DNA of 64,000 bases from Candidatus Blackburnbacteria bacterium RIFCSPLOWO2_01_FULL_40_20 (GTDB lineage: Bacteria; Patescibacteriota; Microgenomatia; UBA8517; UBA10165). Below, piece by piece: positions 1 to 33,743 of this stretch; the first letter of the stretch is position 1, and each line of letters begins with the position of its first letter. Under the pieces are notes generated by a model, which made no database searches, had not been told where the DNA came from, and saw only the letters and a program-made list of their open reading frames with translations. Location of the stretch: assembly GCA_001816475.1 (NCBI GenBank), contig MHCC01000027.1, forward strand, positions 11,312 to 75,311, written 5' to 3'. Both the position numbers and the translations under genes were made by a program.

Positions 1-115
1 AATTAAAACAAAATGAAAAATATGAAAATTACAGAAGGAGATATGAAGAAATTATTAAAAACTCTTCTTTTTGGCAAAATTATGTTGAGCAATTTCAGTT
101 GGCAAACATTAAATA

Positions 116-619
116 ATGAAGTTTATGTCAATTATAAGCGTAACCAAGACATTGAACAAATATATTCAAAACCCATGCGTAGGCTTACCAGATAAAGTAT
201 TCTATTTCATAAGCAGATTAACACCCTTAGTTAATGTTGATCTCTTAATAAGGGATGAAAAAGGACGTACACTTTTATCTTGGAGAGATGACAAATACAC
301 AGGTAAAGGGTGGCATATTCCAAGCGGTATTGTAAGATTCAAAGAAACCCTAGAGACAAGAGTTAAAAAAGTAGCCAAAACTGAAGCGGACATGGATGTT
401 AAATTTGAGAAAACTCCCATAACAATCAAACAATGTATCCATAACGATCGAGACACCAGAGGTCACTTTATATCAATTTTGTACAAATGTTACTTGCCTA
501 GTACTTTTATACCCCTTAACAAAAATTTATCAAAAAAACAACCACGCTATTTGAAATGGCACATTTCTTGTCCAAAAGATTTGATAAAAGCGCATGATAT
601 GTACAAGGAATTCATATGA
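116..619 (+). CDS. NUDIX hydrolase (GDP-mannose mannosyl hydrolase-like)
   Basis: Nudix-box-like segment GWHIPSGIVRFKETLETRVKKVAKTEAD; first gene of a sugar-modification operon, stop overlaps next start. Confidence 0.55.
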   Translation: MKFMSIISVTKTLNKYIQNPCVGLPDKVFYFISRLTPLVNVDLLIRDEKGRTLLSWRDDKYTGKGWHIPSGIVRFKETLETRVKKVAKTEADMDVKFEKTPITIKQCIHNDRDTRGHFISILYKCYLPSTFIPLNKNLSKKQPRYLKWHISCPKDLIKAHDMYKEFI

Positions 620-1653
620 GTAAAGAAAAAATCATTAGCGGACAGTCTCCAGGTGGAGAAAGAGTAAGACTTGCTGAAATCCTCCCTCTGGAAACCCCTT
701 ATGTAGTGCAAATTTTTCCAATTTATGCATGTAATTTAAAATGCAATTATTGCATTTTTCAGTTAAAAAAAACTGGAAGAGGTTTTATCTCCGACAAAGT
801 GAGCATGGGTATCGATTTATACAAGAAATGTATTGAAGACATGACAAAGTTTCCTCAGAAAATCAAAGTGCTTCGTTTCGTTGGAATTGGAGAACCACTC
901 TTGCATAAGAATATTACGGAAATGGTAGAATATGCAGCGTCAAAACGCATCGCAAACACAATTGAAATTATAACTAACGCATCTCTTTTAACTCCTAGAA
1001 TGTCAGATTCGCTTATTAAAGCAGGGCTCACGAGACTAGTCGTATCCATGCAAGGAACTTCTGCAGAAAAATATCAAGAAGTGTGTGGAACTAAAGTAGA
1101 TTTTGACGAGTTACTAAAAAACCTGCTTTATTTCTATAGCAACAAGACCTCAACACATGTATATGTCAAAATTGTAAATAGTGCGATAGAGGGAGAAGAA
1201 GACCAACAGAGATTCTACGATCTTTTTGGAAATCTCTGCGACTCAATGGCTATTGAGCATACCGTGCCTATTCACTCAGGCATAAACTACGAAAAAATAT
1301 TAAGCGGTAACGACGCACAATTTACACAATTCGGTTTACCAGTCTCAGAAGTCAAAATTTGCCCTCAACCTTTTTTTACAATGCAAATTAATCCCGACGG
1401 CAAAGTTGTTCCCTGTTATTCTTTTGAATATCCAAAAATAGTGGGTAATTGCAATATGCAAACGCCTACAGATATCTGGCAAAGCGAGCAATTCCAAAAT
1501 TTCAGAAGAACTATGTTTGAAGGGATCAAAAACGCCAGTGATGTTTGTGCAAATTGCAACATCATCAAATACAGACTTTTCCCAGAAGATGATTTAAGTA
1601 ATGACGCAGAACGACTTAAAAAGTATTATTACAAAGTGCCGCAAAATGAATAG
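616..1653 (+). CDS. radical SAM protein with SPASM-like C-terminal Cys cluster
   Basis: CNLKCNYC (CxxxCxxC) at N-term; C-terminal cysteines CPQP..PCYSF..CANCN resemble auxiliary cluster of SPASM domain; ATGA overlap with upstream gene. Confidence 0.8.
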   Translation: MSKEKIISGQSPGGERVRLAEILPLETPYVVQIFPIYACNLKCNYCIFQLKKTGRGFISDKVSMGIDLYKKCIEDMTKFPQKIKVLRFVGIGEPLLHKNITEMVEYAASKRIANTIEIITNASLLTPRMSDSLIKAGLTRLVVSMQGTSAEKYQEVCGTKVDFDELLKNLLYFYSNKTSTHVYVKIVNSAIEGEEDQQRFYDLFGNLCDSMAIEHTVPIHSGINYEKILSGNDAQFTQFGLPVSEVKICPQPFFTMQINPDGKVVPCYSFEYPKIVGNCNMQTPTDIWQSEQFQNFRRTMFEGIKNASDVCANCNIIKYRLFPEDDLSNDAERLKKYYYKVPQNE

Positions 1654-1737
1654 CTTTTGTTATTTAATTTGGATTGCAAGAAGCAAGTAACCACTCTCGG
1701 CCAAAACTTTAAAAATATTAATAGATAAAATGCAGGA

Positions 1738-2673
1738 ATGAAACGTCAAATAGCCATTTTAGGTTCTAGCTCTCATATAGCAAAAGGGTTAATAAACAAC
1801 TTTCTGCGTTATAGGGGCTACAATTTACACCTTTACACACGATCGGCAAACAAAGTTTACTACTTTTTAGGGGGAAGAGGGGAAGATTACAGAATTCACC
1901 AAAGGTACGATGTCTTGATGAATTATAAATATAACGTTTTAATAAACTGTGTCGGGGTCGGAACAGCAAGTAAATTGCAAGGTGATTACACAAAGTATTT
2001 TACAGTTAACGAAGAATATGACAACCTGGCAATTGGCTATTTATGTAAGTATCCCAATGCACTTTATATTAGTTTCAGTAGTGGGGTAGTTTATGGAAAG
2101 GACTATACAAAGCCAGCAAACAAAAATACAACAAATAAAATTCCCGTGAACCAAATTGTCAAGGAAAATTATTACTCGATAGTTAAACTTAATTCTGAAG
2201 CAAAACACAGGTCTTTTGAAAATCTGAGAATTGTGGACCTTAGAATATTCTCTTACTTTAGTAGATTTATCGATCTAACGGACAATTACTTTGTTTGCGA
2301 AATAATAAACTGTATTCTTAATAAGAAAACCTTTATAACTAATGATGCAAACATAACAAGGGACTATATTCACCCCAAGGACCTTTTTTTAATAATCAAG
2401 AAGTGCATAGAAATTGGAAATCTTAATACTGCATTTGATGTGACAAGCGCCAAGTCTGTCAAAAAAAGAGAAATACTTGACTATTTTTCAGAAAATTACG
2501 GTTTGAAGTACAAGATTGTACCTTCTGTAGAAAATGCCAGTCCGACAGGACAGAAGAATATATATTATTCAAAATATAATAAACTAGCCCAATTTGGGTA
2601 TAAACCAGCACTTACCTCAATGGAAACGATTAAACAGGAATCAAGATATATATTGAACAACAGAAAGTCTTAA
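1738..2673 (+). CDS. extended-SDR NAD(P)-dependent sugar epimerase/reductase (ColC/RfbJ-like)
   Basis: N-terminal Rossmann-like [19 protein letters not shown] and YSIVK (YxxxK) motifs; 311 aa. Confidence 0.5.
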
Positions 2674-2678
2674 TAAAA

Positions 2679-4010
2679 ATGGAAAAACCAATCACCCTTA
2701 AGCTTCAAATTCTGGATTTAGTCAAACAATATTCTGAAGTTACATGGCCTGAAAAAAAGTTTGTTGCCGGCAAAACTCCAGTCCCCGTCTCGGGACGTGT
2801 TTTTGATTTTGATGACGTCTCTAGTCTTGCTGATGCCACATTAGACTTTTGGTTAACTACTGGGCGTTTTGCCGCACAATTTGAACAGGATTTTGCAAAA
2901 TTATTGAAGGCAAAATATGCTATTCTTTGCAATTCCGGTTCCTCAGCAAATTTGCTAGCCGTATCATGTTTAACTTCCCAAAAGCTTGGCAAACAACAAC
3001 TCAAAGAAGGAGATGAGATCATTACGCTTGCTGCTGGATTTCCAACAACAGTTAATCCAATTATTCAAAACAGACTAGTCCCGGTCTTTGTTGATATCGA
3101 CATACCGTCATATAACATTAAAGTTGATCTAATCGAAAAAGCCATTGGCGCAAGAACTCGTGCAATAATGATTGCCCACACATTAGGTAACCCGTTTGAT
3201 GTTGATAAAGTCCTGGCAATTGCCAAAAAAAACAATCTTTGGTTAATTGAAGACAATTGTGATGCGTTGGGCTCAACTTACAAGGATCGCCTTACCGGAA
3301 CCTTTGGCGATCTCTCGACCGTCAGTTTTTATCCAGCACACCATATTACGATGGGTGAAGGAGGATGTGTTGTAACAAATCAGCCAAAATTAAAAATCTT
3401 AGTCGAATCTTTCCGTGACTGGGGTAGAAGTTGCTGGTGTAATCCTGGAAAAGATAATACTTGCGGAAAAAGATTTGAGTGGGAACTTGGAACTCTCCCC
3501 TGCGGGTACGATCACAAATATACATACGACCATGTTGGCTATAACCTCAAGTTAACCGATCTTCAAGCAGCAGTTGGAGTAGCTCAACTTAAAAAACTTC
3601 CAAACTTCATAAAAATTCGTAAAGAAAACTGGCAATATCTACGCAAGGGTCTTGAAAATTTACAGGAGTACTTTATTTTACCTGAGCCAACACCTAAAAG
3701 CGATCCAAGCTGGTTTGGATTTGCCATTACTGTTAGACCAGACGCTCCATTCACCAGAAACCAACTAATTCAATACCTTGACAGCAGAAAAATTGGGACA
3801 CGTCTTCTGTTTGGTGGAAATCTAACTCGCCAACCAGCTTATCAAGGACTTAAATATCGAGTCACAGGAAATCTTACAAATACCGATTTTATAGCGAACC
3901 AGACATTCTGGATTGGTGTTTATCCTGGACTCGGGCACAAGCACCTTAATTATGTTCTAGAAATAATTAATAAAATCTGTCTAAAACCCAGTTTCGCATT
4001 ACGCAAATAA
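2679..4010 (+). CDS. PLP-dependent sugar 3-dehydratase of DegT family (RfbH/DdhC E1- or ColD-type)
   Basis: DegT/DnrJ/EryC1 fold; [13 protein letters not shown] has His where aminotransferases carry the Schiff-base Lys, the hallmark of E1/ColD 3-dehydratases; 443 aa. Confidence 0.75.
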
Positions 4011-4063
4011 TAGGAACTCGTAAATATTGTCGCACAACCTTATTTGTGCTAATAAAGTTATAG

Positions 4064-5788
4064 TTGCTTTTTGCAATGCGCGTAAATACAATAAGTACCT
4101 GCACGGGGTTTGTAATAATGGAAAAAATATTATTTGTTATACCACCATATGTCAGTTTTGACAGTTTTGTAAATCCTGCCTTCAACGACGGAACAACAAC
4201 AAAAAAATCTGGAAAATACAGAAATATTGTTGCCGATTTTCCTATGGGAGTGTTATCTTTAAGCGCTTATTTAAAGAAAAACGCAAACGTAGAAGTAAAA
4301 CTTATCGACTTTAATATTGTTCTAAACAAGCTTGAAAGTTTCGAATATAAATCTTTTTCTGAACTATTCAACGACATCCTTTCGTCAAAAAAATATGTCG
4401 AGTTTGTACCAACCATAATCGGAATATCAACATTATTTACTCCGGCATACTACAACATGTTAGACATTGCAAAAGTTTGCAAAAAGTTATTCTCAAACTC
4501 TTTAATAGTAGCTGGTGGTGGCGTACCTACAAACATGTATAGGGAAATATTTAAGGTTAGCAAAAGTTTTGATGCGCTATGTTTTGGCGAAGGAGAAAAA
4601 CCCATGTTAGACCTAATACAGACAAAGAACAAGTATCTGCATATTAATAATAATCCTTCTTGGATTACTTACAAGAAGATTCGCACCAAAAAATCGTTTC
4701 GACATAATTTTATCATTGATCTTGACGAGATACCATTTTTTGACCTAGATATTATCAAAATAGACGACTATCGATTGACCTCTGTTTTATCAACATTCCC
4801 GCTGGCGAAAGAAAGGATGAAAGGTATGTCTTTTATGACTTCAAGGGGCTGTGTGCATCGTTGTTGCTTCTGTGCATCTCACTCAGTCCATGGGAGACAA
4901 ATGCGATTCCATAGTATTGTCCGAATAGAAAACGATTTAAGAAAATTGAAACGGGACTACGGAATCAAGCTCGTTGTTTTTTTTGACGATCATTTTATGG
5001 CAAACAGAGAGAGGGTTTTTAAGATTGTCAATATTATGAAAAATTTACAGTTGACCGCTTTTTTCCCTGCCTCGCTAACACTTTATGCATTAGATAGAAA
5101 AATGTTAGAAGCTTTAAAAAGCATTGGTCTAAACGAACTCGTTTTGTCAGTAGAATCAGGAAGCGATAAAGTTTTAAGAGAAGTTATGCACAAACCTCTC
5201 AACCTATCTATAGTAAAGCGTGTTATCAAAGATTGCCAAGAATTAGGTATAGATACTGACGTGGCTATTTTAATTGGTCTTCCTGGCGAGACGAAAAAAG
5301 ATATCGAAGACACACGATCGTTCTTAAAAACACTCAATGCAACATGGTTTAGAATTAACATCGCTACACCTCTTGCTGGAAGTGAAATGCTTGAAATATG
5401 CTTAAGAAAAAATTATTTAAAAGGCGATTATATCAGTTGTGATTTTAAAAGACCTGTTATTGGAACCGAAGACTTCACCCCAGAATATATACAAGAAAAA
5501 GCTTATGCGCTAAATCTAGAACTCAATTTCGTAGAAAACAGCGACTTTAAACTTGGAAATTACAAAAAAGCATTAAGGGGATTTGAAAATACAATAAGAG
5601 TAAAAAATGATCATGCATTTGCATATTACTTTGCAGCAAGATGTTGCAAATCGCTGAAGCAAAATAAAAAATATATGGAGTACAAAAACAACTATAAAAA
5701 AATTATAAAAGACTCAGAATTTTGGAGAAACTACTTCAGGCAATTTAACCTGGAACCATTGAGGTATGACCTAACATATCTTAACTAA
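4064..5788 (+). CDS. B12-binding radical SAM protein (class B, methyltransferase-like)
   Basis: N-terminal B12-binding Rossmann region then GCVHRCCFC (CxxxCxxC); likely true start ATG at 4118 (MEKILFVIPP). Confidence 0.8.
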   Translation: MLFAMRVNTISTCTGFVIMEKILFVIPPYVSFDSFVNPAFNDGTTTKKSGKYRNIVADFPMGVLSLSAYLKKNANVEVKLIDFNIVLNKLESFEYKSFSELFNDILSSKKYVEFVPTIIGISTLFTPAYYNMLDIAKVCKKLFSNSLIVAGGGVPTNMYREIFKVSKSFDALCFGEGEKPMLDLIQTKNKYLHINNNPSWITYKKIRTKKSFRHNFIIDLDEIPFFDLDIIKIDDYRLTSVLSTFPLAKERMKGMSFMTSRGCVHRCCFCASHSVHGRQMRFHSIVRIENDLRKLKRDYGIKLVVFFDDHFMANRERVFKIVNIMKNLQLTAFFPASLTLYALDRKMLEALKSIGLNELVLSVESGSDKVLREVMHKPLNLSIVKRVIKDCQELGIDTDVAILIGLPGETKKDIEDTRSFLKTLNATWFRINIATPLAGSEMLEICLRKNYLKGDYISCDFKRPVIGTEDFTPEYIQEKAYALNLELNFVENSDFKLGNYKKALRGFENTIRVKNDHAFAYYFAARCCKSLKQNKKYMEYKNNYKKIIKDSEFWRNYFRQFNLEPLRYDLTYLN

Positions 5789-5789
5789 A

Positions 5790-6719
5790 ATGAAATTAAT
5801 CAGCATAGTGACTCCTTGCTATAACGAAGAAGGCAATATTAAAGAAGTTTATTGTCAGGTAAAAGAAGTTTTTAGTAAATTGAAAGCTTATAAATATGAA
5901 CACATTTTTATCGACAATGTATCAAAAGACAAAACATTATCAATTTTAAAAAATATTGCAAATAAAGACAGAAACGTAAAAATAATTGTAAATGCAAAAA
6001 ATTTCGGTGTCTTACGTTCTGGAAATCACGCACTTCTTCAAGCACAAGGCGACGCAGTAATAACAATGGTCGCTGACTTGCAAGATCCGCCTTGGATGAT
6101 TGAGAATTTTATCAAAAAATGGGAAGATGGATACAAAATTGTCGTTGGTATTAAAAAAAAGAGTGAAGAGAATGTGCTAATGTTCCAAGCAAGAAAGCTG
6201 TATTATAGTTTTGTAAGCCGGATTGCCGAAACCGAACACATAAAAAACTTCACAGGATTCGGACTTTATGATAAATCCTTCATAAATATCTTAAGAGGAC
6301 TGAATGATCCATATCCTTACTTCAGAGGGCTTGTTTCAGAATTGGGCTATGAAAGATTTGAGATCAAATACGAACAACCCGTAAGAAAAAGAGGAAAGAC
6401 AAATAATAACATTTATGTCTTATTCGACACCGCAATGCTTGGACTAACTAATCATTCAAAAGTTCCTCTCCGGCTTGCCACGATGACCGGATTCTTCGTA
6501 GCATCACTGTGTCTTCTGACAGCTCTTGGGTATTTTATCTACAAACTCGCATTTTGGAATAGTTTTTCCGTCGGTATGGCGCCACTCGTAATTGGATTAT
6601 TTTTCTTTGCTTCAATTCAACTGTTTTTCCTGGGGATAATAGGGGAATATATCGGGTCAATTCATACGCGAATACTCAATAGACCGCTGGTTATTGAAAA
6701 AGAACGCATAAATTTCTAA
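5790..6719 (+). CDS. GT2 polyprenyl-phosphate sugar transferase (GtrB/ArnC/DPM1-like)
   Basis: LISIVTPCYNEEGNI N-terminus, D..D region, two C-terminal TM helices typical of GtrB family; 309 aa. Confidence 0.8.
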   Translation: MKLISIVTPCYNEEGNIKEVYCQVKEVFSKLKAYKYEHIFIDNVSKDKTLSILKNIANKDRNVKIIVNAKNFGVLRSGNHALLQAQGDAVITMVADLQDPPWMIENFIKKWEDGYKIVVGIKKKSEENVLMFQARKLYYSFVSRIAETEHIKNFTGFGLYDKSFINILRGLNDPYPYFRGLVSELGYERFEIKYEQPVRKRGKTNNNIYVLFDTAMLGLTNHSKVPLRLATMTGFFVASLCLLTALGYFIYKLAFWNSFSVGMAPLVIGLFFFASIQLFFLGIIGEYIGSIHTRILNRPLVIEKERINF

Positions 6720-6778
6720 AAATCTTCGTTCATCGTTCTTCATTTCCATGATTAAATCGATTAAAATAAACAAGGCTT

Positions 6779-8254
6779 ATGAAAAAGATTATTTTCCAGA
6801 TACTCTTGTTTTTTATATCAATCTCCCCTTTTATTTTATCCAATTATCTTCTGTTCCTTAAAGACCCTCCTATTTGGCCAGATGAGCCTGTTTTTCTCAA
6901 TATGGCCAATAATTTGGTAACAATTGGAAAATTGGCTATGAATATAGTTGGCGACCCCAACGCGGAACAAAGTGGAGGCGGATACCCCCCACTCTATTTT
7001 TATATACTTGGTGTTTGGACTAGCACTTTTGGAAATTCGATAGAAACAGTAAGATCAATGTCGCTTCTCTTAGCCTTTTTTTCACTTCTTGTCTTTTTTC
7101 TACTTGCCAACAAAATATTCAACAATTTTCGTTTGGCTGCAATTGGAACATTTATACTTTCTTTAGATGTCCATTTTTCCCGATCGTCAAGAACCGGCAG
7201 GATGGAAATCCTAACATTTTTTTTCTTTTTACTGTCAATTCTTTTATTACTGTGCGCTCAAAAAAGTAAGAAATTTTTCTGGTATTTGTTTTCTGGATTT
7301 GCCGCGGCACTGGCTACATTGTCACATGCTGCAGGTTTTGTAGCACCCATTGTTTTAATGGTTGGAGAACTAACTGTCCCGGAAAATAACCGCAAAAAAC
7401 TTTGCAAAATATTAATACTTATTATACCAACTGTGCTATTAAATTTAATTTGGATAGTTAGCAAAAAAGGGTCAGTCGATTTTATTGCCTCTGCGTTTTC
7501 AATACAATTCCAAGACAAAGCCTCAAAGATCCCTTATATTTTTGTGCTTTTTCAATCAGATTTTTCTTGGTGTTTGTTGTTTTTGGCTTATGCGACAATA
7601 ATTGCCACATCTTTAATTTTGCTAATAAAATTTTTCAAGCGAGAACATTTATTTATCCTTACTGGATCAATAGTATCAGCAATGTTTGTAATCTTTGGAA
7701 AAGAAGGTGGATATATTATTTATTTACAACCTTTCATTGTTCTAAATATTATCTATGTCCTCACTAAGAGGGTCGAACTAATAAATGAGACTGCAAAAAT
7801 AGGAATAGTTTGCCTTGCTTTAATTGTAATAGTCTCTTATATAAACATACAGTTTTTCAACAACGACAACATCGGTATAACAAGATCTGGTGTCAATTCA
7901 ATTTGGGACAGTAAAAACTACAACTACCACCAGTTTAGCAACGAAATTGCAGAAAAACTACCTAAAAACAAGAATTTAACACTTTTTCTTTCTGCCGCGC
8001 CTGACCCTTATTTTGATTTAGTAAAAAACAGTCAATATAGAATTTACGAAATGGTTTCCCCGTCTGCTCCTCTATCTGATAGCTTATATAAAAAGCTTTT
8101 GGATTCCACAGACTACATCATATTCACCTGGATCCCGCATCAATATTTGGCAGATTATATAAATAAAAACAAAGAAGAGTTCATTCATGTTGGACAAGAA
8201 GATACTTATCAAGCAACAATTGTAAAACTCAAACCGCTAAAAGATCGTATCTAA
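6779..8254 (+). CDS. GT-C fold membrane glycosyltransferase (GT39/GT83 ArnT/PMT-like)
   Basis: Polytopic membrane protein, N-terminal loop PDEPVF motif, ~12 predicted TM helices, follows GtrB-like GT2. Confidence 0.55.
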   Translation: MKKIIFQILLFFISISPFILSNYLLFLKDPPIWPDEPVFLNMANNLVTIGKLAMNIVGDPNAEQSGGGYPPLYFYILGVWTSTFGNSIETVRSMSLLLAFFSLLVFFLLANKIFNNFRLAAIGTFILSLDVHFSRSSRTGRMEILTFFFFLLSILLLLCAQKSKKFFWYLFSGFAAALATLSHAAGFVAPIVLMVGELTVPENNRKKLCKILILIIPTVLLNLIWIVSKKGSVDFIASAFSIQFQDKASKIPYIFVLFQSDFSWCLLFLAYATIIATSLILLIKFFKREHLFILTGSIVSAMFVIFGKEGGYIIYLQPFIVLNIIYVLTKRVELINETAKIGIVCLALIVIVSYINIQFFNNDNIGITRSGVNSIWDSKNYNYHQFSNEIAEKLPKNKNLTLFLSAAPDPYFDLVKNSQYRIYEMVSPSAPLSDSLYKKLLDSTDYIIFTWIPHQYLADYINKNKEEFIHVGQEDTYQATIVKLKPLKDRI

Positions 8255-8296: not shown

Positions 8297-8728
8297 ATGA
8301 ATAAAACACTTACTAACAGAATAATTTTTTTGTTGTCAATTTCAGGACTTCTTGTTAGTCTGTATTTGCTCAAGACCTACACTTCCCAATCTGCAATTGC
8401 CTGTTTTAGTGGCGAAGGTTGTGACATTGTCAGAAAAAGTACTTATGCATATCCCCTTGGAATTCCAATGCCAGCAATAGGAATTTTTGGATTTGGCATA
8501 ACGGCTATGTTAAGTTTTTTGATAACTCTAAAACACAAGTTTCACGCGCAATTTGTGCGTGTCCTTTTGTTAATTTCTTTCCTTGGATTCTCGTTCGTGG
8601 TATACTTAACTTCCTTAGAAATTTGGGTAATTAAGGCATTTTGTTCCTGGTGTTTAACTGCGGCAGGTTTACAGTTGCTAATATTCTCACTTTCAATATA
8701 CCTTTTTCTAAATGAATCAAGAAACTAA
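8297..8728 (+). CDS. vitamin K epoxide reductase (VKOR) family protein
   Basis: 4-5 TM protein with loop Cys pair CFSGEGC and CSWC redox motif in last TM; directly upstream of DsbA. Confidence 0.75.
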   Translation: MNKTLTNRIIFLLSISGLLVSLYLLKTYTSQSAIACFSGEGCDIVRKSTYAYPLGIPMPAIGIFGFGITAMLSFLITLKHKFHAQFVRVLLLISFLGFSFVVYLTSLEIWVIKAFCSWCLTAAGLQLLIFSLSIYLFLNESRN

Positions 8729-9332
8729 AGTTTTTATTGGTATCGGCGTAATCACTGTGGCTATATTAATAGGCGCAGTTTTTCTTTTTAGTAAACCACA
8801 AAGTGTACCGCAAGCAGCAGACACAAGGGTTGTACTGGGTGCCCAACAACAATCGGTGGGCCCTGAAAATTCACAGGTTACACTTATTGAGTTTTCAGAC
8901 TTCCAGTGTCCGGCTTGCAAAGCGGCTTGGCCAACAGTTGAAGCGCTTACCAAAGCCTATCCAAACCAACTCAGATTTGTATATCGCCACTTCCCTCTTC
9001 CCCAACACAAATTTGCAAAAGACGCGGCCTACGCCGCAGAAGCTGCGGGGAAACAAGGTAAGTTTTGGGAAATGTCCAACCTTCTTTTTGAAAACCAAGA
9101 AAGTATTTCCCCCGAGCTTTTCCCTAAATTGGCAGACGAACTTAGATTAGACCTAGAGCAATTCAAAAAAGACATGGAAAGTCAAGAAATTAAAGACAAA
9201 GTTGAGGCAGATTTGAATGATGCTCGTACATTAGGTGTAAACTCTACACCCACATTTTATTTGAATGGTACAAAAGTAAACTTGGCAAATTTTGACGACT
9301 TAAAAACACAAGTTGAAAAGTCACTCCGATAA
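8712..9332 (+). CDS. DsbA-family thiol:disulfide oxidoreductase
   Basis: N-terminal TM anchor, thioredoxin CPAC active site (FSDFQCPACK), DsbA-length. Confidence 0.8.
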   Translation: MNQETKVFIGIGVITVAILIGAVFLFSKPQSVPQAADTRVVLGAQQQSVGPENSQVTLIEFSDFQCPACKAAWPTVEALTKAYPNQLRFVYRHFPLPQHKFAKDAAYAAEAAGKQGKFWEMSNLLFENQESISPELFPKLADELRLDLEQFKKDMESQEIKDKVEADLNDARTLGVNSTPTFYLNGTKVNLANFDDLKTQVEKSLR

Positions 9333-10563
9333 GTTGGTATTAAATATGTCCCCAAAAATATTAGTACTAGGTGGAGGTTTTGCAGGGGTAAGAGCAGCAC
9401 TTGACCTTTCAAAACTTTTGCCCAATGGCGACATCACCTTAATTTCCAAATCAAGCTACCACTGTTTTGTGCCAGATTTATACGAAATAGCAACAGCAAT
9501 AATTAAAAATGAACATCGTGCGGATTTCAAAAACTTAAGAGGAACTGTAAATATACCCTTGGACGAAATATTTGGAAAAACAAAAGTAAAAGTTATCATA
9601 GATGAGATCAAAAATATTGACTTAGTACGACAGGTTGTAAACACAACAAAAGAAAATCTTGAGTATAACTATTTGGTAATCTGCTTGGGTAGTACAACAA
9701 ACTATAAAAACATCGAGGGTGCACAAAATTTTTCCCATCCCTTTAAAACCACAGAAGATGCTTTAAATATTCGAAACGACATTGATGAGCTGGTTTCCAA
9801 ATCTCCAAGACCAATCGAAGTTGTTATCGCAGGTGGCGGTTTTACTGGTTGTGAGCTATCTGCGGAACTTTCAGGGTTTTTGTCCAAACTCTCAACAACA
9901 CACAAAAAAGGGTTAGGAAAAATAGCAGTCCTTCAATCTAAAGATGCAATTCTATCTGGAATGTCAAAATGGGCGCAAGATGAAGCTTTAAAAAGACTTA
10001 AAAAACTAAAGGTGATAATTTTAACCAATCACAAAATACAAAAAATTACCCAAGCTGAGATTGTTTGCGAGAATCAAGAACGTCTAACTTTTGACTATTT
10101 GATTTGGACAACAGGAATTAAGAGTGCTTTTACCAATATTAATGGAATCAAGTTAAACAATCGTGGACAAATAAAAGTATCCAAAACATTGAATATAGAA
10201 AATTTTCCAGATGTCTTTGCTGTAGGTGATATTGCAGAATTCTGGGATGAAAAAGGAAATGCTCTTGTTCCACAAACAGCCTGGGTAGCAATCGGTCAGG
10301 CAAAAATAGCAGCTCGCAATATAGCTTCTTCATACAACAATCTTAAGTTGAAAAAATATTCGCCACTCAGCCCGGTGTTTATAGTGCCTGTTGGACAAAA
10401 ATTTGCCATATCAAACATGTTTGGTCTAAATACCAAGGGCTTGTTTGTTTGGTTTGCAAGAAGACTTGTCTCGTTAAAGTATCTTACATCTGTGCTCTCA
10501 CCCAACAAGGCGTTATTACTTTGGCTACAAGGTGCAAGAATTTACATTAAAAACGACACTTGA
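9313..10563 (+). CDS. FAD/NAD(P)-dependent oxidoreductase, type II NADH dehydrogenase (NDH-2)-like
   Basis: Two dinucleotide-binding motifs LVLGGGFAGV and VIAGGGFTGCE; 416 aa pyridine nucleotide-disulfide oxidoreductase fold. Confidence 0.7.
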   Translation: MKSHSDKLVLNMSPKILVLGGGFAGVRAALDLSKLLPNGDITLISKSSYHCFVPDLYEIATAIIKNEHRADFKNLRGTVNIPLDEIFGKTKVKVIIDEIKNIDLVRQVVNTTKENLEYNYLVICLGSTTNYKNIEGAQNFSHPFKTTEDALNIRNDIDELVSKSPRPIEVVIAGGGFTGCELSAELSGFLSKLSTTHKKGLGKIAVLQSKDAILSGMSKWAQDEALKRLKKLKVIILTNHKIQKITQAEIVCENQERLTFDYLIWTTGIKSAFTNINGIKLNNRGQIKVSKTLNIENFPDVFAVGDIAEFWDEKGNALVPQTAWVAIGQAKIAARNIASSYNNLKLKKYSPLSPVFIVPVGQKFAISNMFGLNTKGLFVWFARRLVSLKYLTSVLSPNKALLLWLQGARIYIKNDT

Positions 10564-10589
10564 CATGAAGCAACTATATCTAATAGACT
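10560..10589 (+). promoter_or_regulatory. candidate sigma70-like promoter (TTGACA-N18-TAGACT)
   Basis: TTGACA at 10560-10565 overlapping NDH-2 stop, TAGACT at 10584-10589; faces the ORF-poor GC-rich island. Confidence 0.3.
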
Positions 10590-12426: not shown

Positions 12427-12984
12427 TTAGGATTTCGTGCTTCGTGCTTCGAATTTAAACCCGTATATAATTTTCGCTATTACTTGATCGATTATTTCCT
12501 TTTCTTCGTTTTCGAAATCCTCAAGCACATATTGCTCGCCTGAGATTCTGTTTTCCGGTTTTCTATTGTCGACTCCGACTCTGATTCTCCAAAAATCGGC
12601 TGTTCCAAGTTTTTCTTCAATTGACAAAAGCCCATTGTGGACCTTTGGCCCTTTGCCTTTTTGAATTTTATATTCCCCAAGCTTAATATCAAGATCGTCA
12701 TGGATTACATACAAATCGTCGTACTTAACTTTAAACCAGTCAACAAGTTTTTTTACTGCCTCACCAGAATTATTCATGAACGTATGTGGCTGGGCAAGAA
12801 GTACGTCTACCGTCTTCAGTCCACAGACTACCGATAATAAATTACTCTTTTCTTCCCACTTGCTGTAGTCTGTAGTCGGTAGACAGTAGTCTTGTCCAAT
12901 TCGATTCACCACCATAAATCCTACACTATGCCTTGTGTTTTTATATTTTTCTCCAGGGTTCCCTAAGCCAACAATTAGCTTCAT
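12427..12984 (-). CDS. pth: peptidyl-tRNA hydrolase
   Basis: MKLIVGLGNPGEKYKNTRHSVGF signature, 185 aa. Confidence 0.9.
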   Translation of the reverse strand: MKLIVGLGNPGEKYKNTRHSVGFMVVNRIGQDYCLPTTDYSKWEEKSNLLSVVCGLKTVDVLLAQPHTFMNNSGEAVKKLVDWFKVKYDDLYVIHDDLDIKLGEYKIQKGKGPKVHNGLLSIEEKLGTADFWRIRVGVDNRKPENRISGEQYVLEDFENEEKEIIDQVIAKIIYGFKFEARSTKS

Positions 12985-13205
12985 TTAAGTTCTCCTGTCT
13001 CCTCTTCTGTTAATTCCGCTTGGGCAATTATTCTTCTTAATGTACCAACAGGAACAGGTCCTGGGTGAATTGCAACTTGTGTCCACCGACCATCAGAATG
13101 TTTAAGTCTGATATGGCTTCCACGTCCTCCAACTTCTTGGAAACCCATCTTTGTAAGAAATTTTACCAACTTTTGAGGTTTGACATTACGGGGCAATCTG
13201 CTCAT
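12981..13205 (-). CDS. hicA: HicA-family toxin (YcfA-like mRNA interferase)
   Basis: 74 aa, KPQKLVKFLTKMGFQEVGGRGSHIRL..DGRWTQVAIHPGPVPVGTLRRI matches HicA dsRBD-like fold; overlaps hicB stop. Confidence 0.75.
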   Translation of the reverse strand: MSRLPRNVKPQKLVKFLTKMGFQEVGGRGSHIRLKHSDGRWTQVAIHPGPVPVGTLRRIIAQAELTEEETGELK

Positions 13206-13474
13206 AAATAGCCTAATTTTGCACCGGCCGGAACTTTAACTTGAGCTGTGGTTACCATTTGTAATTCAGTGTTTTCTATTGGAACTTCTTTTCCCTCTTT
13301 TACCAAAGACTCCAAAGCAAGTTCTATACCATCATTTATGCTTTCTAAAACCTCGTCGATGGAATCACCATAGTCAGCAACACCTAATACCGGACAATAG
13401 GCATTGTATACAGTCTTTTTGCCCATCTTTTCAGGCTCAACAATAATTCGATAGTTTAATACTCTTGCTTGCAT
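13202..13474 (-). CDS. hicB: HicB-family antitoxin (UPF0150)
   Basis: 90 aa, YRIIVEPEKMGKKTVYNAYCPVLGVADYGDSIDEVLESINDGIEL typical HicB N-domain; 4-nt overlap with hicA. Confidence 0.7.
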   Translation of the reverse strand: MQARVLNYRIIVEPEKMGKKTVYNAYCPVLGVADYGDSIDEVLESINDGIELALESLVKEGKEVPIENTELQMVTTAQVKVPAGAKLGYL

Positions 13475-16684: not shown

Positions 16685-17800
16685 TTATTTTACGAGCTCA
16701 TAATAGCTTCCCTTGGTTTTTCCTTTTTTACGGATTACATTACTTTTTACTAAAGCTTGAAATTCGCGCAAAACTGTATCCTCAGAAACCATTGGGAAAA
16801 GCGGCCTGATCTCTCCCATTCCTCCTCTTTCGTTTTCAGATAAATATTCAATTATTTTAATCTGCCGCTCGGAAAGAGCAACCTGCTGACCTCTTTTTGC
16901 TCTAATTTTTGTATCAATTGACAACTTTTTAACTTTCTCGCGAACACGTGTTAATTCAACTGCCAAACCTTGAGTAAAATATCCAATCCAAGCCGTCAAA
17001 TCGCGATCTCCAAGCTCTTTCGACTGACCTGAGGTTGCAATTAGCGCTCCGTAATAAGCCTCCGCATCCCGATCAAAATATTCTTCTAAAGAAAACAGTC
17101 GCTTAATATCATAATCTTCAACAAACATAACTAGAGTTGCAAAAGCCCGTGCTGTTCTCCCGTTCCCCTCAACAAACGGATGGATAGCAGCAAGCACATA
17201 GTGCGCAACTGCCGCACGTATTACGGGGTGAACTTCCCTGCCTACTTTTGAATTCATGAAAACTACCAAGTCTTCCATCAGGTAGGGAACCTCAACTGAT
17301 GGTGGTGGCCTAAAGGTTATCTCTCCCGTTCTTGAGTCGCGCAATACTACTTGGCTTTTTCTATAAACTCCTTGATTTTCCTCAGAAACCAACCTGTTTA
17401 CAACAAGTTTGTGGATTTGTTTTATCAAATTTTCAGAGAAACGAAAAATGTCGTTTTTTTGGCTTGTATTGTATTGTTTGTCTAAAAACTCCATAACGGT
17501 TCTGTAGTTGATAACCTCTTGTATATCTCTTTCTCGTGCTGTAATCCCAACTTTTTCCACAGCTTTTTCTGCGTTTGTTTCTCCAAATGACCCTCGAATT
17601 ACTTTCCCTGCTTGTTCAAAGGATAAATCGTTGCCCTCAATGTGAGTTCCGTGATGGACTGTTCGAATCATTGCTTCTTCTTGGAACTGCCTTTCATACG
17701 CCGGAATAAGAGGTGCTTCTTGAATAATTTCCTTACAAGCTTCAATCGTGCCAATATTTTTCAAAATGCTATTAGTGATGGTATACTTGGGAGAATACAT
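16685..17800 (-). CDS. Fic/DOC family protein
   Basis: HPFVEGNGRTAR = canonical Fic motif HPFx[DE]GNGR; C-terminal winged-helix-like tail. Confidence 0.85.
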   Translation of the reverse strand: MYSPKYTITNSILKNIGTIEACKEIIQEAPLIPAYERQFQEEAMIRTVHHGTHIEGNDLSFEQAGKVIRGSFGETNAEKAVEKVGITARERDIQEVINYRTVMEFLDKQYNTSQKNDIFRFSENLIKQIHKLVVNRLVSEENQGVYRKSQVVLRDSRTGEITFRPPPSVEVPYLMEDLVVFMNSKVGREVHPVIRAAVAHYVLAAIHPFVEGNGRTARAFATLVMFVEDYDIKRLFSLEEYFDRDAEAYYGALIATSGQSKELGDRDLTAWIGYFTQGLAVELTRVREKVKKLSIDTKIRAKRGQQVALSERQIKIIEYLSENERGGMGEIRPLFPMVSEDTVLREFQALVKSNVIRKKGKTKGSYYELVK

Positions 17801-18483: not shown

Positions 18484-18535
18484 GCAGGTGATCTAACTCA
18501 AATTAGACAAGGTCACCTGCTTTTCATTTCTCTTC
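18484..18535. terminator. intrinsic terminator hairpin (bidirectional position)
   Basis: GCAGGTGATC-17nt loop-GGTCACCTGC then TTTTCATTTCTCTTC; sits between the convergent sORF and M16 peptidase gene. Confidence 0.55.
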
Positions 18536-19846
18536 AAGTGATTTTCCCAATTTTTCTGCATCAGTAGGCCCAATCGCAGCAATGTAGAAATTATTCTTTT
18601 GAAAATACTTTGAAGCAACTTCAAATACTTCTTGCGACGATATTTTCTTATACATATTTTCTTGTTCATTCGGAGAAATTGACTTGCCTCGCATTGATTC
18701 TTGAAATCCATACCACCGGGCAAAATCTGTTACCGTTTCCATGTTCGAAATCAAACTGCCTGTAATGTGTCCTTTAGCTAACTTCATGTCACTATCGCTT
18801 AACTTTTTATTTGATAACTTTTCAAATTCCTCCTTTACCAACGATGTAATTTTGTATTGGTTTTCTTTTGATGCTGACGCACTAAAAAAAAGATATCCTG
18901 TCTCGTCCAAGTTGTCCTGCCACATATTCCAATTGTATATTAGTCCACCTTCGTCTCTTAATCTTTGTGGCAAACGCGCTCCAAAATATCCACCCAAACA
19001 ATCTGTAATAAAATCCAGAACGTGCCTGTCTTGGTGGGCATACGGTATTGTTTTTACACCAAACATTATAGCCGTTTGATCTGAATCGATAAAATTGACT
19101 TTTACCCTCTCGCCTGAGTTTGATACCTCATTTTGACTATGAAGAAAAGATTTTCTGTTATAGATTGTCGAATATTCATCAAACAATTTCACTGAACTCT
19201 CAAGGTCAACATCCCCCGCTACAATAAAGACTGTTGAGTCGGCCAAAAAATGATCACTAATGAAATTCCCAACATCGCGAGTCGATATATTTTTAACATC
19301 TTTTTCAACACCAGTACAAGGATGAGACAAGCATGTTCCTTTAAAAAACAGAGGGTTCCATGCAAAATCCCATATCGCTGTTTCAGGATTTTCCCGACGC
19401 TTCAAGATTTCTTCTTTTACAACACCCTTCTCCTGTTCCAAACCTTCGTTGTTTATAATTGGATTTACGAGTGTTTCAAAAAGTATTTCAATTCCTTTTT
19501 TAAGTTGTAGTTTTGGTAAATGAATCATGTGCCTTTGGTATTCAATCCAAGTAAAGGCATCGTGCCACCCTCCATGTTGATTTATGGATTGTGAAAGTAA
19601 TGCTGAAGAAGGGTAGTTTTTTGTTCCGTTAAAAAGCATGTGCTCCGTAAAGTGAGCAAGTCCTGGCCGATTTGATGGATCATGCCGAAACCCGGCCTTT
19701 ATGTAGGCTGAAATTGTAACAGGAAATGCACCAGGAATTTTTATAACACCCAAAGTTGATCCATTGTTTAGTCTGGTCTTTTGATAAAAAGTTTGCTTGC
19801 GCATGATGTAATTATATGACAAAAGGCTTGGCAATAAAAATAACAA
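18524..19846 (-). CDS. M16 family zinc metallopeptidase (insulinase/pitrilysin-like)
   Basis: Inverted zincin motif HFTEH (GLAHFTEHMLFNG); more likely start at ATG 19804 (MRKQTFYQ), track start is TTG. Confidence 0.8.
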   Translation of the reverse strand: MLFLLPSLLSYNYIMRKQTFYQKTRLNNGSTLGVIKIPGAFPVTISAYIKAGFRHDPSNRPGLAHFTEHMLFNGTKNYPSSALLSQSINQHGGWHDAFTWIEYQRHMIHLPKLQLKKGIEILFETLVNPIINNEGLEQEKGVVKEEILKRRENPETAIWDFAWNPLFFKGTCLSHPCTGVEKDVKNISTRDVGNFISDHFLADSTVFIVAGDVDLESSVKLFDEYSTIYNRKSFLHSQNEVSNSGERVKVNFIDSDQTAIMFGVKTIPYAHQDRHVLDFITDCLGGYFGARLPQRLRDEGGLIYNWNMWQDNLDETGYLFFSASASKENQYKITSLVKEEFEKLSNKKLSDSDMKLAKGHITGSLISNMETVTDFARWYGFQESMRGKSISPNEQENMYKKISSQEVFEVASKYFQKNNFYIAAIGPTDAEKLGKSLEEK

Positions 19847-21918: not shown

Positions 21919-23007
21919 ATGGGTAGTAAACAAAAATTTAAATTAAATCTAAATTGGATAGTTAAAGAAGAAAAAGACCAAATTAGCCTCAATTCACCCT
22001 ATGGAGAGAAGAAAAAATATACACCTTCAAAACATCTGTTAGAATTTTTAATAATCAAAAGTTGTATCAATCAGCCAAAAAGTTTAAAACTAATAACTCA
22101 AGATATACAAAACGTGCTCAACGTGTCGCAAAAGGAAGTGGAAAACAAGATAAGTGAATTATTAAAAGCTAAAATATTCAGCTATAATACAACATCTGGG
22201 AATACTTTCTCCACAAATGAATTAGACAGGTATAAATGGCAACTGGAATTTTTTACTTCATTTGAATCGTTAAAAAACTCTAAATATGACATACAAAATA
22301 ATTTAAAAAACAGTCACATCGCCATCATCGGCATAGGAGGCCAAGGAAGTATCATCGCTCAAATACTCGTAGCTATGGGGATAGGAAAACTAACAATAGT
22401 AGATGGTGATACCATTGAAAGAAGTAATTTGACTAGACAACTGGCATATAATGATAGCGATATTGGTAAATACAAAGTAGAAGTGCTCAAATCAAGGCTG
22501 AAACTACAAAATCCATATACCAAAATAACTCCAATGAGGCAATATGTAACCTCAAAAAAAGATTTTATGGATATTATAAATGGTAAAGATTTTGTAATTT
22601 TGTGTGCAGATAAACCTCTCGTTAAGTTAGGGAGGTGGTTAAACAAAGTAGCCCTATCTGAAAGAATACCTTATTTAGGGGTTAGTGGAAATTGGATAGG
22701 CCCTATCTGTATACCCTTTAAAACACCCTGTTTTGAATGCGTATTGTCCCACCAAATAAATAAGGACAAAGATTTTGAAAAATATCTAAAGACATTGGAA
22801 AAACTCAAAGAAATTCCTAGGCCATCTTTTGGAGTTAGACCGATTTTATCAGGAACGTTAATGGCTTTACAAGTAATTAAATATCTCACAAAGGTTATGG
22901 ACGTTGAGATTTTAGAAGGTAGATTTAGAGTCAACATAGATTTAACTACAGAGTTTGAAAAGATAAAACTAGATAACAATTGTAAGGCATGCGGAAATAC
23001 AAAATGA
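21919..23007 (+). CDS. E1-like (ThiF/MoeB/HesA) enzyme with N-terminal RRE/winged-helix-like extension (TOMM C-protein-like)
   Basis: IAIIGIGGQGSIIAQILVAMGIGKLTIVDGDTIERSNLTRQ ThiF nucleotide-binding signature starting ~aa 135; ~130-aa N-terminal extension; 19-nt overlap with YcaO gene. Confidence 0.8.
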   Translation: MGSKQKFKLNLNWIVKEEKDQISLNSPYGEKKKYTPSKHLLEFLIIKSCINQPKSLKLITQDIQNVLNVSQKEVENKISELLKAKIFSYNTTSGNTFSTNELDRYKWQLEFFTSFESLKNSKYDIQNNLKNSHIAIIGIGGQGSIIAQILVAMGIGKLTIVDGDTIERSNLTRQLAYNDSDIGKYKVEVLKSRLKLQNPYTKITPMRQYVTSKKDFMDIINGKDFVILCADKPLVKLGRWLNKVALSERIPYLGVSGNWIGPICIPFKTPCFECVLSHQINKDKDFEKYLKTLEKLKEIPRPSFGVRPILSGTLMALQVIKYLTKVMDVEILEGRFRVNIDLTTEFEKIKLDNNCKACGNTK

Positions 23008-31866: not shown

Positions 31867-31873
31867 AAGTCTT

Positions 31874-31943
31874 GTTAAGGTTTTTACTCAAGTGGTATAA
31901 TTATTCACAAAGCATTTTGCTTCGCAAAACTTGACAAATAACT
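31874..31943. repeat. intergenic repeat element copy C with TTGACA box, upstream of 31984 gene
   Basis: gttaaggttt..agtggtataattattcacaaagcattttgcttcgcaaaacttgacaaataact. Confidence 0.7.
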
Positions 31944-31983
31944 ACAGGGCATGGTAATCTAACCTATATTATTGGTTTAAAGC

Positions 31984-33735: not shown

Positions 33736-33743
33736 TAATTTAC

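Follow-up and report, generated by a model that had tools for sequence, protein, structure and literature searches.

What kind of sugar is made by a locus that encodes a dedicated 3-dehydrase among several radical S-adenosylmethionine (SAM) enzymes, and how does this sugar reach the cell surface? The question is raised by a gene cluster at positions 116–8254 of a 64,000-nucleotide stretch of DNA (hereafter the window) from Candidatus Blackburnbacteria bacterium RIFCSPLOWO2_01_FULL_40_20 (contig MHCC01000027.1), a member of the candidate phyla radiation (CPR). The original prediction described a seven-gene nucleotide-sugar operon in this region. Its gene order and domains were confirmed for all seven plus-strand open reading frames (ORFs), and the sole coordinate change is the start of the gene for a B12-domain radical SAM enzyme (here B12b), which is moved from 4064 to 4118. 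Chance is not an explanation for these ORFs because they are long, lie in DNA of 35% GC and have strong profile scores; the gene content also bears out a function in nucleotide-sugar metabolism. The region is the 3' half of a 16-gene glycan operon that is carried on a single strand. The preferred reading, for which the chances appear about even, is that this operon builds a long acyl-branched 3,6-dideoxyhexose linked to cytidine diphosphate (CDP), which is tailored by radical SAM enzymes and exported via polyprenyl phosphate to the cell surface.

The window edge truncates the operon, since bases 1–115 (+) are the 3' end of the gene for a second B12-domain radical SAM enzyme (B12a, 548 aa). The first 700 bases of the window are 100% identical to positions 9886–10585 of a metagenome locus (L007), in which the B12a ORF occupies 8355–10001 (100% identity over the shared end). 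Beyond the seven predicted genes, nine more on the same strand lie toward the 5' side of the window and were read from identical metagenome contigs. The RfbH protein (the 3-dehydrase) is present in identical form in 35 blocks of the contig collection, and the listed contigs are groundwater metagenome samples, including the ANAN16 set. The sequence further upstream was reached through a database protein that is 98% identical to the cytidylyltransferase of the operon, and a scan of the metagenome contigs for this enzyme returned relatives at 74% identity or less. The nine co-oriented upstream genes, an opposite-strand gene that precedes the first GT-C gene and the short gaps between operon genes (-17 to 150 bp) together argue for a 16-gene unit. 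Scans for promoters and terminators were uninformative on the operon limits, with counts close to those expected from shuffled sequence and all of the rare terminator-like sites being intragenic.

In the 5' part, the operon encodes a GT-C glycosyltransferase, a DdhA-like cytidylyltransferase, a NeuB-cupin fusion, a HAD hydrolase, a YerE/JanthE-like thiamine diphosphate (ThDP) enzyme, a GT2 glycosyltransferase and three radical SAM enzymes. The 3' part continues with a Gmm-like Nudix protein, a twitch-domain radical SAM enzyme, a short-chain dehydrogenase/reductase (SDR), the E1/RfbH 3-dehydrase, the AprD4-like radical SAM enzyme B12b, a GtrB-like GT2 and another GT-C. There are thus five radical SAM enzymes in the operon, not the two that were thought to flank the dehydrase, and the SDR gene separates the SPASM-type enzyme from the dehydrase gene. 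Related loci were collected from three neighbourhoods and from a scan of GTDB species genomes, which yielded 35 non-redundant loci. These represent about 15 phyla and are, without exception, in metagenome-assembled genomes.

The 3-dehydrase gene (2679–4010, +) encodes a 443-aa protein of the DegT family (Pfam, E = 5e-96). It scores 725.2 bits against the RfbH equivalog model NF011936 over residues 6–434 (cutoff 423) and 588 bits against Yersinia E1 (PDB 3BCX) over residues 7–428. The 13-residue E1 motif is identical to that of wild-type 3BCX, and the histidine that replaces the aminotransferase lysine is retained in the window protein; the H220K mutant (3BB8) has AKH at this position. In addition, H220, H221, C193, C251, C253 and C261 are invariant in 21 of 21 sequences, including the window protein and 19 orthologues from the related loci. 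The four-cysteine [2Fe-2S] site formed by C193, C251, C253 and C261 defines E1, and ColD is without this cluster (PMC8987622). Since the His-His motif and all four cysteines are kept, the protein is classified as a genuine E1-type rather than a ColD-type enzyme, that is, as a predicted CDP-4-keto-6-deoxyglucose 3-dehydrase dependent on pyridoxamine phosphate and a [2Fe-2S] cluster. The original assignment to an E1/ColD type, which was made from the His-His pair in place of the catalytic lysine, therefore stands for E1 and falls for ColD.

As had been noted for the window, no E3 reductase accompanies this enzyme. A crude scan for ferredoxin-NADP reductase (FNR) motifs, which covered the window, the upstream part of the operon and 36 related loci, found no E3/FNR-type reductase, and no E3-type family recurs among the neighbours of the related loci. 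SpnQ, which has no dedicated E3, draws its electrons from ferredoxin or flavodoxin reductase pairs that serve the cell in general (PMC8987622). Given this precedent, the absence of E3 need not implicate the radical SAM enzymes in electron supply.

A second informative group of genes lies upstream of the window. The nucleotidyltransferase that was expected there is present as a glucose-1-phosphate cytidylyltransferase-type gene: the protein matches TIGR02623 over its full length at 260 bits (cutoff 300), and the 98%-identical protein is named glucose-1-phosphate cytidylyltransferase by NCBI. The ThDP enzyme is acetolactate-synthase-like. In a PDB search it matched JanthE (8RPH) over the full length at 368 bits, versus 258 bits for the best acetolactate synthase. 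The 8RPH structure is that of JanthE, a characterized YerE-like carboligase (PMC12188165). By these similarities, the operon encodes a YerE/JanthE-like carboligase beside DdhA-like and E1 genes. A pyruvate aldolase was not found in the operon, which instead encodes a phosphoenolpyruvate (PEP)-dependent synthase of the NeuB family as a fusion with a cupin. The best match of this fusion is 3G8R, an SpsE-like structural-genomics protein (347 bits, far above sialic and pseudaminic acid synthases), and its cupin part resembles mannose-6-phosphate and lyxose isomerases. Other genes in this upstream part, all on the operon strand, encode the HAD hydrolase, a soluble GT2, the first GT-C of the operon (566 aa), a second SPASM-type radical SAM enzyme of 369 aa (SPASM-369), of which the closest relative is MoaA (5e-22), and a radical SAM enzyme whose N-terminal domain is C2185-like/NeuD-like (L007 6042–7244).

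The 4,6-dehydratase that was also expected upstream did not appear. The operon starts at the GT-C gene, and tblastn searches of about 74 kb of known sequence (window plus upstream loci) found no homologue of the CDP-glucose 4,6-dehydratase DdhB. The queries were eight extended-SDR ORFs from related loci, six of which are DdhB-type dehydratases, and the best match (E = 0.012) fell on the SDR of the operon. Among the related loci, 16 of 35 have a DdhB-type 4,6-dehydratase with the [ST][ST]DK[AC]Y motif, mostly between the cytidylyltransferase and RfbH genes. A 19-locus cluster of extended SDRs was also considered as the 4,6-dehydratase and was rejected as a heterogeneous single-linkage cluster, in which the SDK motif leaves 16 loci. 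The gene for this step may be located elsewhere in the genome of about 1 Mb, or a non-homologous enzyme may supply the 4-keto sugar. CMP-ulosonate synthetases of the CTP_transf_3 type are absent from the operon and do not recur in the related loci. Since the operon has one nucleotidyltransferase and no recurrent CMP-ulosonate synthetase, the final product is most simply CDP-linked, which also suits the soluble and GtrB-type GT2 enzymes.

The genes of this operon form a conserved cassette, which is shared by many uncultured and mostly anaerobic lineages. Operon proteins were compared with the ORFs of each related locus at thresholds of at least 40% identity and 70% coverage, and many of the 35 loci are incomplete. 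The twitch radical SAM gene is found in all 35 loci, followed by SPASM-369 (32), Nudix (30), the SDR (26), NeuB-cupin (25), the ThDP enzyme (22), RfbH (19), the cytidylyltransferase (16), the B12a/b type (12), the pair of GT2 and C2185-domain radical SAM genes (9) and the GtrB-like GT2 (5, or 6 by direct search). About eight genes are shared, with orthologues 50–74% identical across about 15 phyla. Full 10-kb flanks are available for 22 loci. Among these, RfbH occurs with the ThDP gene in 16 and without it in none. Similarly, the ThDP gene occurs with NeuB-cupin in 19 of these loci and without it in none, and is present in 19 of the 21 NeuB-positive loci. No description of the cassette was found in the searchable literature, which leaves out a 2024 in-silico survey of YerE-like clusters, and no paper there links radical SAM enzymes with E1/RfbH, 3-dehydrase, CDP-glucose, nonulosonic acid or Patescibacteria. 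The survey, by Krug and co-workers, reportedly covers more than 200 YerE-like clusters.

The related loci also contain a C2185-like/NeuD-like Rossmann domain that is fused to five different modules, namely a SAM-dependent methyltransferase, an FkbM methyltransferase, a classical SDR, a radical SAM enzyme and a B12-domain radical SAM enzyme. Each fusion occurs in 9–11 loci, and examples are found at L031 11019–12185, L042 18137–19951, L040 13492–14622, L043 14627–16078 and L026 7056–8216. The domain shows a weak resemblance to the family model of NeuD/PglB/VioB sugar acetyltransferases in its N-terminal part, and this part of the acetyltransferases presumably binds the nucleotide sugar. Such a distribution would suggest a shared nucleotide-sugar handle, that is, a portable recognition domain for one common nucleotide-linked intermediate.

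Three genes at the start of the cluster, those for the Nudix protein, the twitch radical SAM enzyme and the SDR, are usually contiguous in the cassette. The Nudix gene (116–619, +; 167 aa; Pfam NUDIX 24.1 bits) is located directly upstream of the twitch radical SAM gene. GDP-mannose mannosyl hydrolase (Gmm) is its top match in both NCBIfam and PDB, yet the score against the Gmm family model NF011963 (33.5 bits, cutoff 146) indicates that it is not a member and is Gmm-like in motif only. Its degenerate Nudix box (G-x5-E-x7-KVAKTEAD) aligns with that of Gmm (PDB 2GT4; G-x5-E-x7-RLTMAELG), with the same glutamates missing, and this pattern is kept in 31 family members. Gmm cleaves at the sugar C-1 and thereby frees the sugar. 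By this resemblance, the Nudix protein probably releases a free sugar from a nucleotide sugar.

The twitch radical SAM enzyme (616–1653, +; 345 aa; Radical_SAM E = 2.5e-16, SPASM E = 3e-15) has the CX3CX2C motif at C39/C43/C46. Its invariant auxiliary cysteines follow the pattern C249-x12-G-x4-C267, C279 and C311-x2-C314, with no CX5CX3C continuation, and the NCBIfam twitch model matches residues 247–315. This arrangement identifies one predicted twitch-type auxiliary [4Fe-4S] domain rather than a full seven-cysteine SPASM domain. The enzyme is BtrN/BlsE/DesII-like: its PDB sequence matches are BtrN (2.4e-15), BlsE (1e-06) and DesII (about 2e-05), and in Foldseek comparisons of a predicted model (pLDDT 72) BtrN ranks top (3.5e-12), followed by SuiB, BlsE and DesII. 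No other cassette gene is as well conserved, and the enzyme has 903 homologues. The best 120 of these are 63–70% identical, and the named sources among them are Patescibacteria, Omnitrophota, Kiritimatiellota, Smithella, Ignavibacteria, Desantisbacteria and a contig labelled Bathyarchaeia. A role of the SPASM-type radical SAM enzymes as maturases of ribosomally synthesized and post-translationally modified peptides (RiPPs) was considered and rejected, given that there is no precursor-peptide context, the nearest relatives are BtrN, BlsE, DesII and MoaA, and sugar genes surround them in every locus.

The SDR (SDR311; 1738–2673, +; 311 aa; Pfam Epimerase E = 4.4e-08) is a highly divergent protein of the nucleotide-sugar type. 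As a single sequence it had no match in PDB, and its family profile gave only weak matches (E about 1e-03), which were to ArnA, a UDP-GlcNAc 4-epimerase and GDP-6-deoxymannose reductase. The TDE/SDK of 4,6-dehydratases is replaced by SSGxxYG, and Tyr146 and KHR are conserved. These motifs place SDR311 with the reductase/epimerase type and not with the dehydratases. In the cassette it is usually found right after the twitch radical SAM gene and is genetically tied to this gene, not to the ThDP gene.

B12b (4118–5788, +; 556 aa; PF02310 46 bits, PF04055 82 bits) is located directly after RfbH as an extra AprD4-like paralogue, and is 59% identical to B12a. The ATG at 4118 is preferred over 4064 because B12a and the family consensus (MDKILFIVPPY) begin there; B12b, B12a and the family share the N-terminal pattern MxxILFxxPPY. 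The N-terminal domain is of the B12-binding Rossmann type, and the CX3CX2C motif of the radical SAM core (CVHRCCFC) is at residue 245. The family has 1,617 homologues, and identity across phyla is 58–69%. In the original prediction, B12b was a class B enzyme and hence typically a methyltransferase. The classification of the radical SAM enzymes points elsewhere. In PDB, the best sequence match is AprD4 (4.6e-17), ahead of TokK (3.7e-04), and in Foldseek comparisons of an AlphaFold model (pLDDT 90) AprD4 again ranks first (1.9e-22, TM-score 0.75–0.77), with the cobalamin-dependent methylases CysS, TsrM, OxsB, MgmA and TokK behind it (1e-18 to 1e-14). The NCBIfam models for P- and C-methyltransferases score 80–120 bits, all far below their cutoffs. 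As judged from sequence and predicted fold, the nearest solved relative of B12b is thus the cobalamin-independent 1,2-diol dehydratase AprD4 rather than the methyltransferases, and its designation as a class B methyltransferase is unsafe. More generally, the closest solved relatives of the radical SAM enzymes in the operon (BtrN, BlsE, DesII, AprD4 and MoaA) act on sugars or nucleotides. The C-terminal part of B12b (about 100 aa; window 5300–5788) is predicted to be all-helical, and several homologues have Pfam TPR matches there. AprD4 is about 100 residues shorter (454 aa) and may be without this extension.

The last two genes of the operon encode the predicted pair of glycosyltransferases, which was confirmed. 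The GtrB/DPM1-type GT2 (5790–6719, +; 309 aa; PF00535 E = 1.8e-25, 90 bits) has two C-terminal transmembrane helices (225–243 and 258–276). Its top NCBIfam matches are PgfS (175 of 500 bits) and ArnC (97 of 529 bits), both below cutoff. Orthologues at 56–69% identity were found by direct search in six other cassette loci, which belong to six other phyla. The protein is probably a polyprenyl-phosphate glycosyltransferase. The GT-C that follows (6779–8254, +; 491 aa) is of the PMT_2/ArnT-like type (PF13231 43.6 bits, cutoff 26.1), with at least nine hydrophobic or transmembrane segments and the residues D35-E36 in the first loop after the first of these segments. From these features, it may move the sugar off its lipid carrier and onto an acceptor at the cell surface. 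No homologue of this GT-C was found in the related loci, so it appears to be lineage-specific; the same count of 0 of 35 applies to the GT-C at the other end of the operon.

The following pathway is inferred from homology and genomic context, and is laid over the observed gene content, protein families, catalytic motifs, conservation and co-occurrence. Known YerE-like enzymes join an enzyme-made hydroxylated α-keto acid (C4–C8) to CDP-4-keto-3,6-dideoxyglucose, which is the product of E1, after which a reductase acts (PMC9306805; PMC12247030). In the proposed scheme, CDP-glucose would be made and converted to the 4-keto sugar, from which E1 would remove the 3-OH with electrons from general ferredoxins or flavodoxins, giving CDP-4-keto-3,6-dideoxyhexose. 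Separately, the twitch radical SAM enzyme and the SDR would tailor a second sugar, which the Gmm-like Nudix protein would free from its nucleotide. In pseudaminic and legionaminic acid pathways, nucleotide-sugar hydrolases likewise precede NeuB homologues. NeuB-cupin would then condense the free sugar with PEP to a polyhydroxylated 3-deoxy-2-ulosonic (α-keto) acid, from which the HAD hydrolase would take off a phosphate, if any. The YerE-like ThDP enzyme would decarboxylate this keto acid and add it at C-4 of the CDP-keto sugar, and the product would be a long acyl-branched 3,6-dideoxyhexose of the caryophyllose or gastriose kind. The two AprD4-like, the MoaA-like and the C2185-domain radical SAM enzymes, together with the SDR, could subsequently deoxygenate, reduce, methylate or cyclise it; alternatives for the remaining radical SAM enzymes include oxidation or epimerisation and C–C bond formation. 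Finally, the GtrB-like GT2 would load the CDP-sugar onto polyprenyl phosphate, and a GT-C would pass it to a surface acceptor.

Several points weigh against this scheme. The canonical substrate of E1 is without a visible source, given that no CDP-glucose 4,6-dehydratase is encoded in the roughly 74 kb, and no E3 was found in the operon or related loci. The roles of the radical SAM enzymes and the SDR are drawn only from nearest relatives at 14–21% identity. Three of the 22 full loci carry the ThDP and NeuB genes but have no RfbH gene within 10 kb, so that the link of E1 to these genes is frequent, not obligatory. Known YerE-like clusters use class II pyruvate aldolases, not a NeuB-type synthase (PMC9306805), and a NeuB-type synthase is not known to supply a YerE-like enzyme. 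A related explanation is bolder. The cassette might represent an undescribed anaerobic radical-SAM route to higher-carbon branched sugars that is widespread in uncultured bacteria including CPR, in which a YerE-like carboligase is supplied by a PEP-dependent synthase of the NeuB type, radical SAM enzymes replace DdhB/E3-type or aldolase chemistry, and the outcome is a surface monosaccharide of a kind not seen before. Candidates might be a BtrN-like dehydrogenase or epimerase, AprD4-like dehydratases and a MoaA-like C–C bond former, which might generate the 4-keto sugar or deoxygenate or cyclise the side chain. This explanation is tentative and rather unlikely.

Other explanations divide the genes differently. 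The free sugar released by the Nudix protein may already lead to the end product: E1 and the SDR would make a CDP-3,6-dideoxyhexose, the Nudix protein would free it, and NeuB-cupin with PEP would convert it to a deoxy-nonulosonic acid, leaving the ThDP enzyme with a side role. The step order of a DegT-family enzyme, a nucleotide-sugar hydrolase and a NeuB-family synthase does match that of the routes to pseudaminic and legionaminic acid, the most conserved genes are those for Nudix, the twitch radical SAM enzyme, the SDR and NeuB-cupin (30, 35, 26 and 25 of 35 loci), and NeuB is without RfbH in 3 of 22 full loci. However, with no CMP-ulosonate synthetase in the operon or cassette, a free ulosonic acid would not be activatable for glycosyltransferases, and a side role fits poorly with a ThDP enzyme that is YerE/JanthE-like and so strongly linked to NeuB. 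An ulosonic acid end product is therefore considered unlikely. Even lower plausibility is given to the idea that the genes inside the window suffice for a simple non-canonical deoxy or C-methyl hexose, with B12b as a class B C-methyltransferase, a radical SAM enzyme offsetting the absent E3, and delivery to the surface by polyprenyl phosphate, as the original prediction held. Such a product would be consistent with the B12-binding Pfam domain, the strong fold matches to the class B methylases CysS, TsrM and TokK, the 80–120-bit matches to methyltransferase models, the GtrB-type GT2 and GT-C and the lack of E3. Yet it leaves out nine co-oriented upstream genes that co-occur across phyla, and NeuB-cupin, HAD, the YerE/JanthE-like ThDP enzyme and five radical SAM enzymes point to a long acyl-branched sugar instead. 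Moreover, the cobalamin-independent AprD4 ranks first in the sequence and fold comparisons alike, the methyltransferase scores are far below cutoff, and general ferredoxin or flavodoxin reductases already explain E1-type enzymes that work independently of E3 (PMC8987622). Quite improbable to a similar degree is a mosaic surface-glycan locus, in which unrelated pathways (for a Ddh-type dideoxyhexose, a NeuB-type acid and radical-SAM-modified sugars) are co-located as in O-antigen clusters and have no combined product. Gene order and content do vary between loci, with many optional tailoring genes such as the C2185 fusions to methyltransferase, FkbM, SDR and radical SAM modules, and, besides two GT-C genes, three types of glycosyltransferase are encoded in the operon. 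The conservation of the same approximately eight genes at such identity across phyla speaks against mere co-location, as does their asymmetric co-occurrence (RfbH only with ThDP, ThDP only with NeuB), which argues for a functional unit that was transferred together.

To our knowledge, nothing is established about the surface glycans of CPR bacteria or of most other uncultured anaerobes that carry the cassette. The degree of conservation among these lineages suggests a specific sugar that is under selection and has spread by horizontal transfer, and this sugar likely shapes cell–cell, host or phage interactions. Primary nucleotide-sugar pathways seldom involve radical SAM enzymes, as far as is known. 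The cassette contains two large conserved families of them, BtrN-like and AprD4-like, and no studied member was found for either. If a NeuB-type synthase does feed a YerE-like carboligase, this would extend the 'unifying scheme' for acyl-branched sugars and offer new biocatalysts for C–C bond formation.

Immediately downstream of the second GT-C, three plus-strand genes encode a VKOR protein (8297–8728), a DsbA-like thioredoxin (8712–9332) and a Pyr_redox_2 flavoprotein (9346–10563), all identified by Pfam matches. The gaps from GT-C through VKOR and DsbA to the flavoprotein are 42, -17 and 13 bp, and the three genes are possibly co-transcribed with the glycan operon. They are outside the conserved cassette, being found in 0 of 35 related loci, and for the same reason the flavoprotein or the VKOR/DsbA pair is unlikely to be a surrogate for E3. 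The VKOR, the DsbA-like protein and the flavoprotein, which is NDH-2/SelD-N-terminal-like, could form a complete extracytoplasmic disulfide-bond system. Quinones are expected to be absent in this organism, as in other CPR bacteria. At the other end, just upstream of the operon and divergent from its first GT-C gene, lies a gene for a large polytopic membrane protein of more than 540 aa that runs off the contig end (L134 1–1644, -). It may be a further glycosyltransferase or a polymerase.

Other features of the window are apart from the glycan operon. A ThiF/E1-like gene overlaps a YcaO cyclodehydratase gene (21919–24227, +), and an M16-type peptidase and a Nudix-nitroreductase-M16_C fusion are encoded nearby (18524–19846, - and 38544–40205, -). 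Together these genes resemble a RiPP cluster of the azoline/YcaO type, here in the genome of a CPR bacterium. The region is flanked by genes for two paralogous, very divergent asparagine-synthase-like proteins of about 540 aa (25716–27350, - and 36631–38247, -). Their Asn_synthase matches have E values of 1e-04 to 7e-07, and they might be enzymes similar to lasso cyclases or amidotransferases. Two IS30-like transposase ORFs are present in the regions 31023–35498 and 60934–61938, and the first of these ORFs is N-terminally truncated. Beside it, two large proteins without a Pfam match are encoded, of which one is Cys-rich, and the GC content of this stretch (0.42–0.43 versus about 0.35) suggests that it may be recently acquired DNA. 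Two ORFs that, read by eye, resemble tryptophanyl-tRNA synthetase paralogues are located within 7 kb of each other (48356–49417, - and 54957–55955, -), although the genome is small. Finally, the region of 12984–13474 (-) has a HicA-toxin-family gene and a small partner ORF (Pfam annotation of identical contigs), and a Fic-domain protein is encoded at 16685–17800 (-).

Among characterized systems, the operon is most usefully set beside the clusters for acyl-branched sugars, such as those of yersiniose (YerE/YerF), erwiniose (ErwE/F/I/J), caryophyllose (MMAR_2331–2333) and gastriose (MygE/F/I) (Steitz et al., 2022; PMC9306805). In common with these, it has E1/RfbH, an acetolactate-synthase-like ThDP enzyme of the YerE/JanthE class and dedicated glycosyltransferases. 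A putative CDP-glucose-type cytidylyltransferase, a candidate SDR of the NAD(P)H type and a candidate aldol-type condensation enzyme that would make a hydroxylated α-keto acid may also correspond. The presumed supplier of this keto acid differs, being a PEP-dependent NeuB-cupin with HAD here and a pyruvate aldolase there. DdhB was not found in this operon, nor DdhD/E3 here or in related loci, whereas up to five radical SAM enzymes and the Gmm-like Nudix protein are added and export would be by a GtrB-type GT2 plus GT-C. The hosts also differ, with uncultured anaerobes and CPR bacteria on one side and Proteobacteria or mycobacteria on the other. What is known in the cassette, then, is its likeness to acyl-branched and deoxy sugar clusters, and what is new is the putative NeuB-type supplier of the keto acid, the Nudix protein and the set of up to five radical SAM enzymes.

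A similar combination of shared and missing parts is seen against the Ddh/Asc/Rfb pathway of Yersinia and Salmonella (DdhA-D = RfbF, G, H and I). DdhA-like and DdhC (E1) orthologues with all E1 catalytic and cluster residues are present, and DdhB is located beside DdhA/E1 in 16 of 35 related loci, whereas this operon is without DdhB, DdhD/E3 or a recognisable paratose/abequose synthase. In having a His-type [2Fe-2S] 3-dehydrase with no E3 partner, it resembles the spinosyn forosamine pathway with SpnQ. However, SpnQ belongs to the antibiotic biosynthesis of an actinomycete and acts on a dTDP-2,6-dideoxy sugar, and the E1 found here passes the CDP-specific RfbH threshold. For the radical SAM enzymes, the parallels are to aminoglycoside biosynthesis. 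AprD4, the best match of B12b, works with the reductase AprD3 in the C3' deoxygenation of apramycin, and an SDR is encoded near B12b as well. BtrN of butirosin biosynthesis is the best match of the twitch enzyme and has a similar single auxiliary-cluster cysteine pattern. However, identity is only 18–21%, and the presumed substrates here are nucleotide-linked sugars or ulosonic acids rather than aminoglycoside pseudodisaccharides. Lastly, the GT2 with two transmembrane helices and the GT-C with many such helices and a DE motif correspond to three-component systems such as GtrA/B/V, ArnC/ArnT and Streptococcus PgfS/PgfM. No GtrA-like flippase was recognised in this operon, which is bracketed by two GT-C genes, and its predicted CDP-linked donor would be far more elaborate than those of the known three-component systems.

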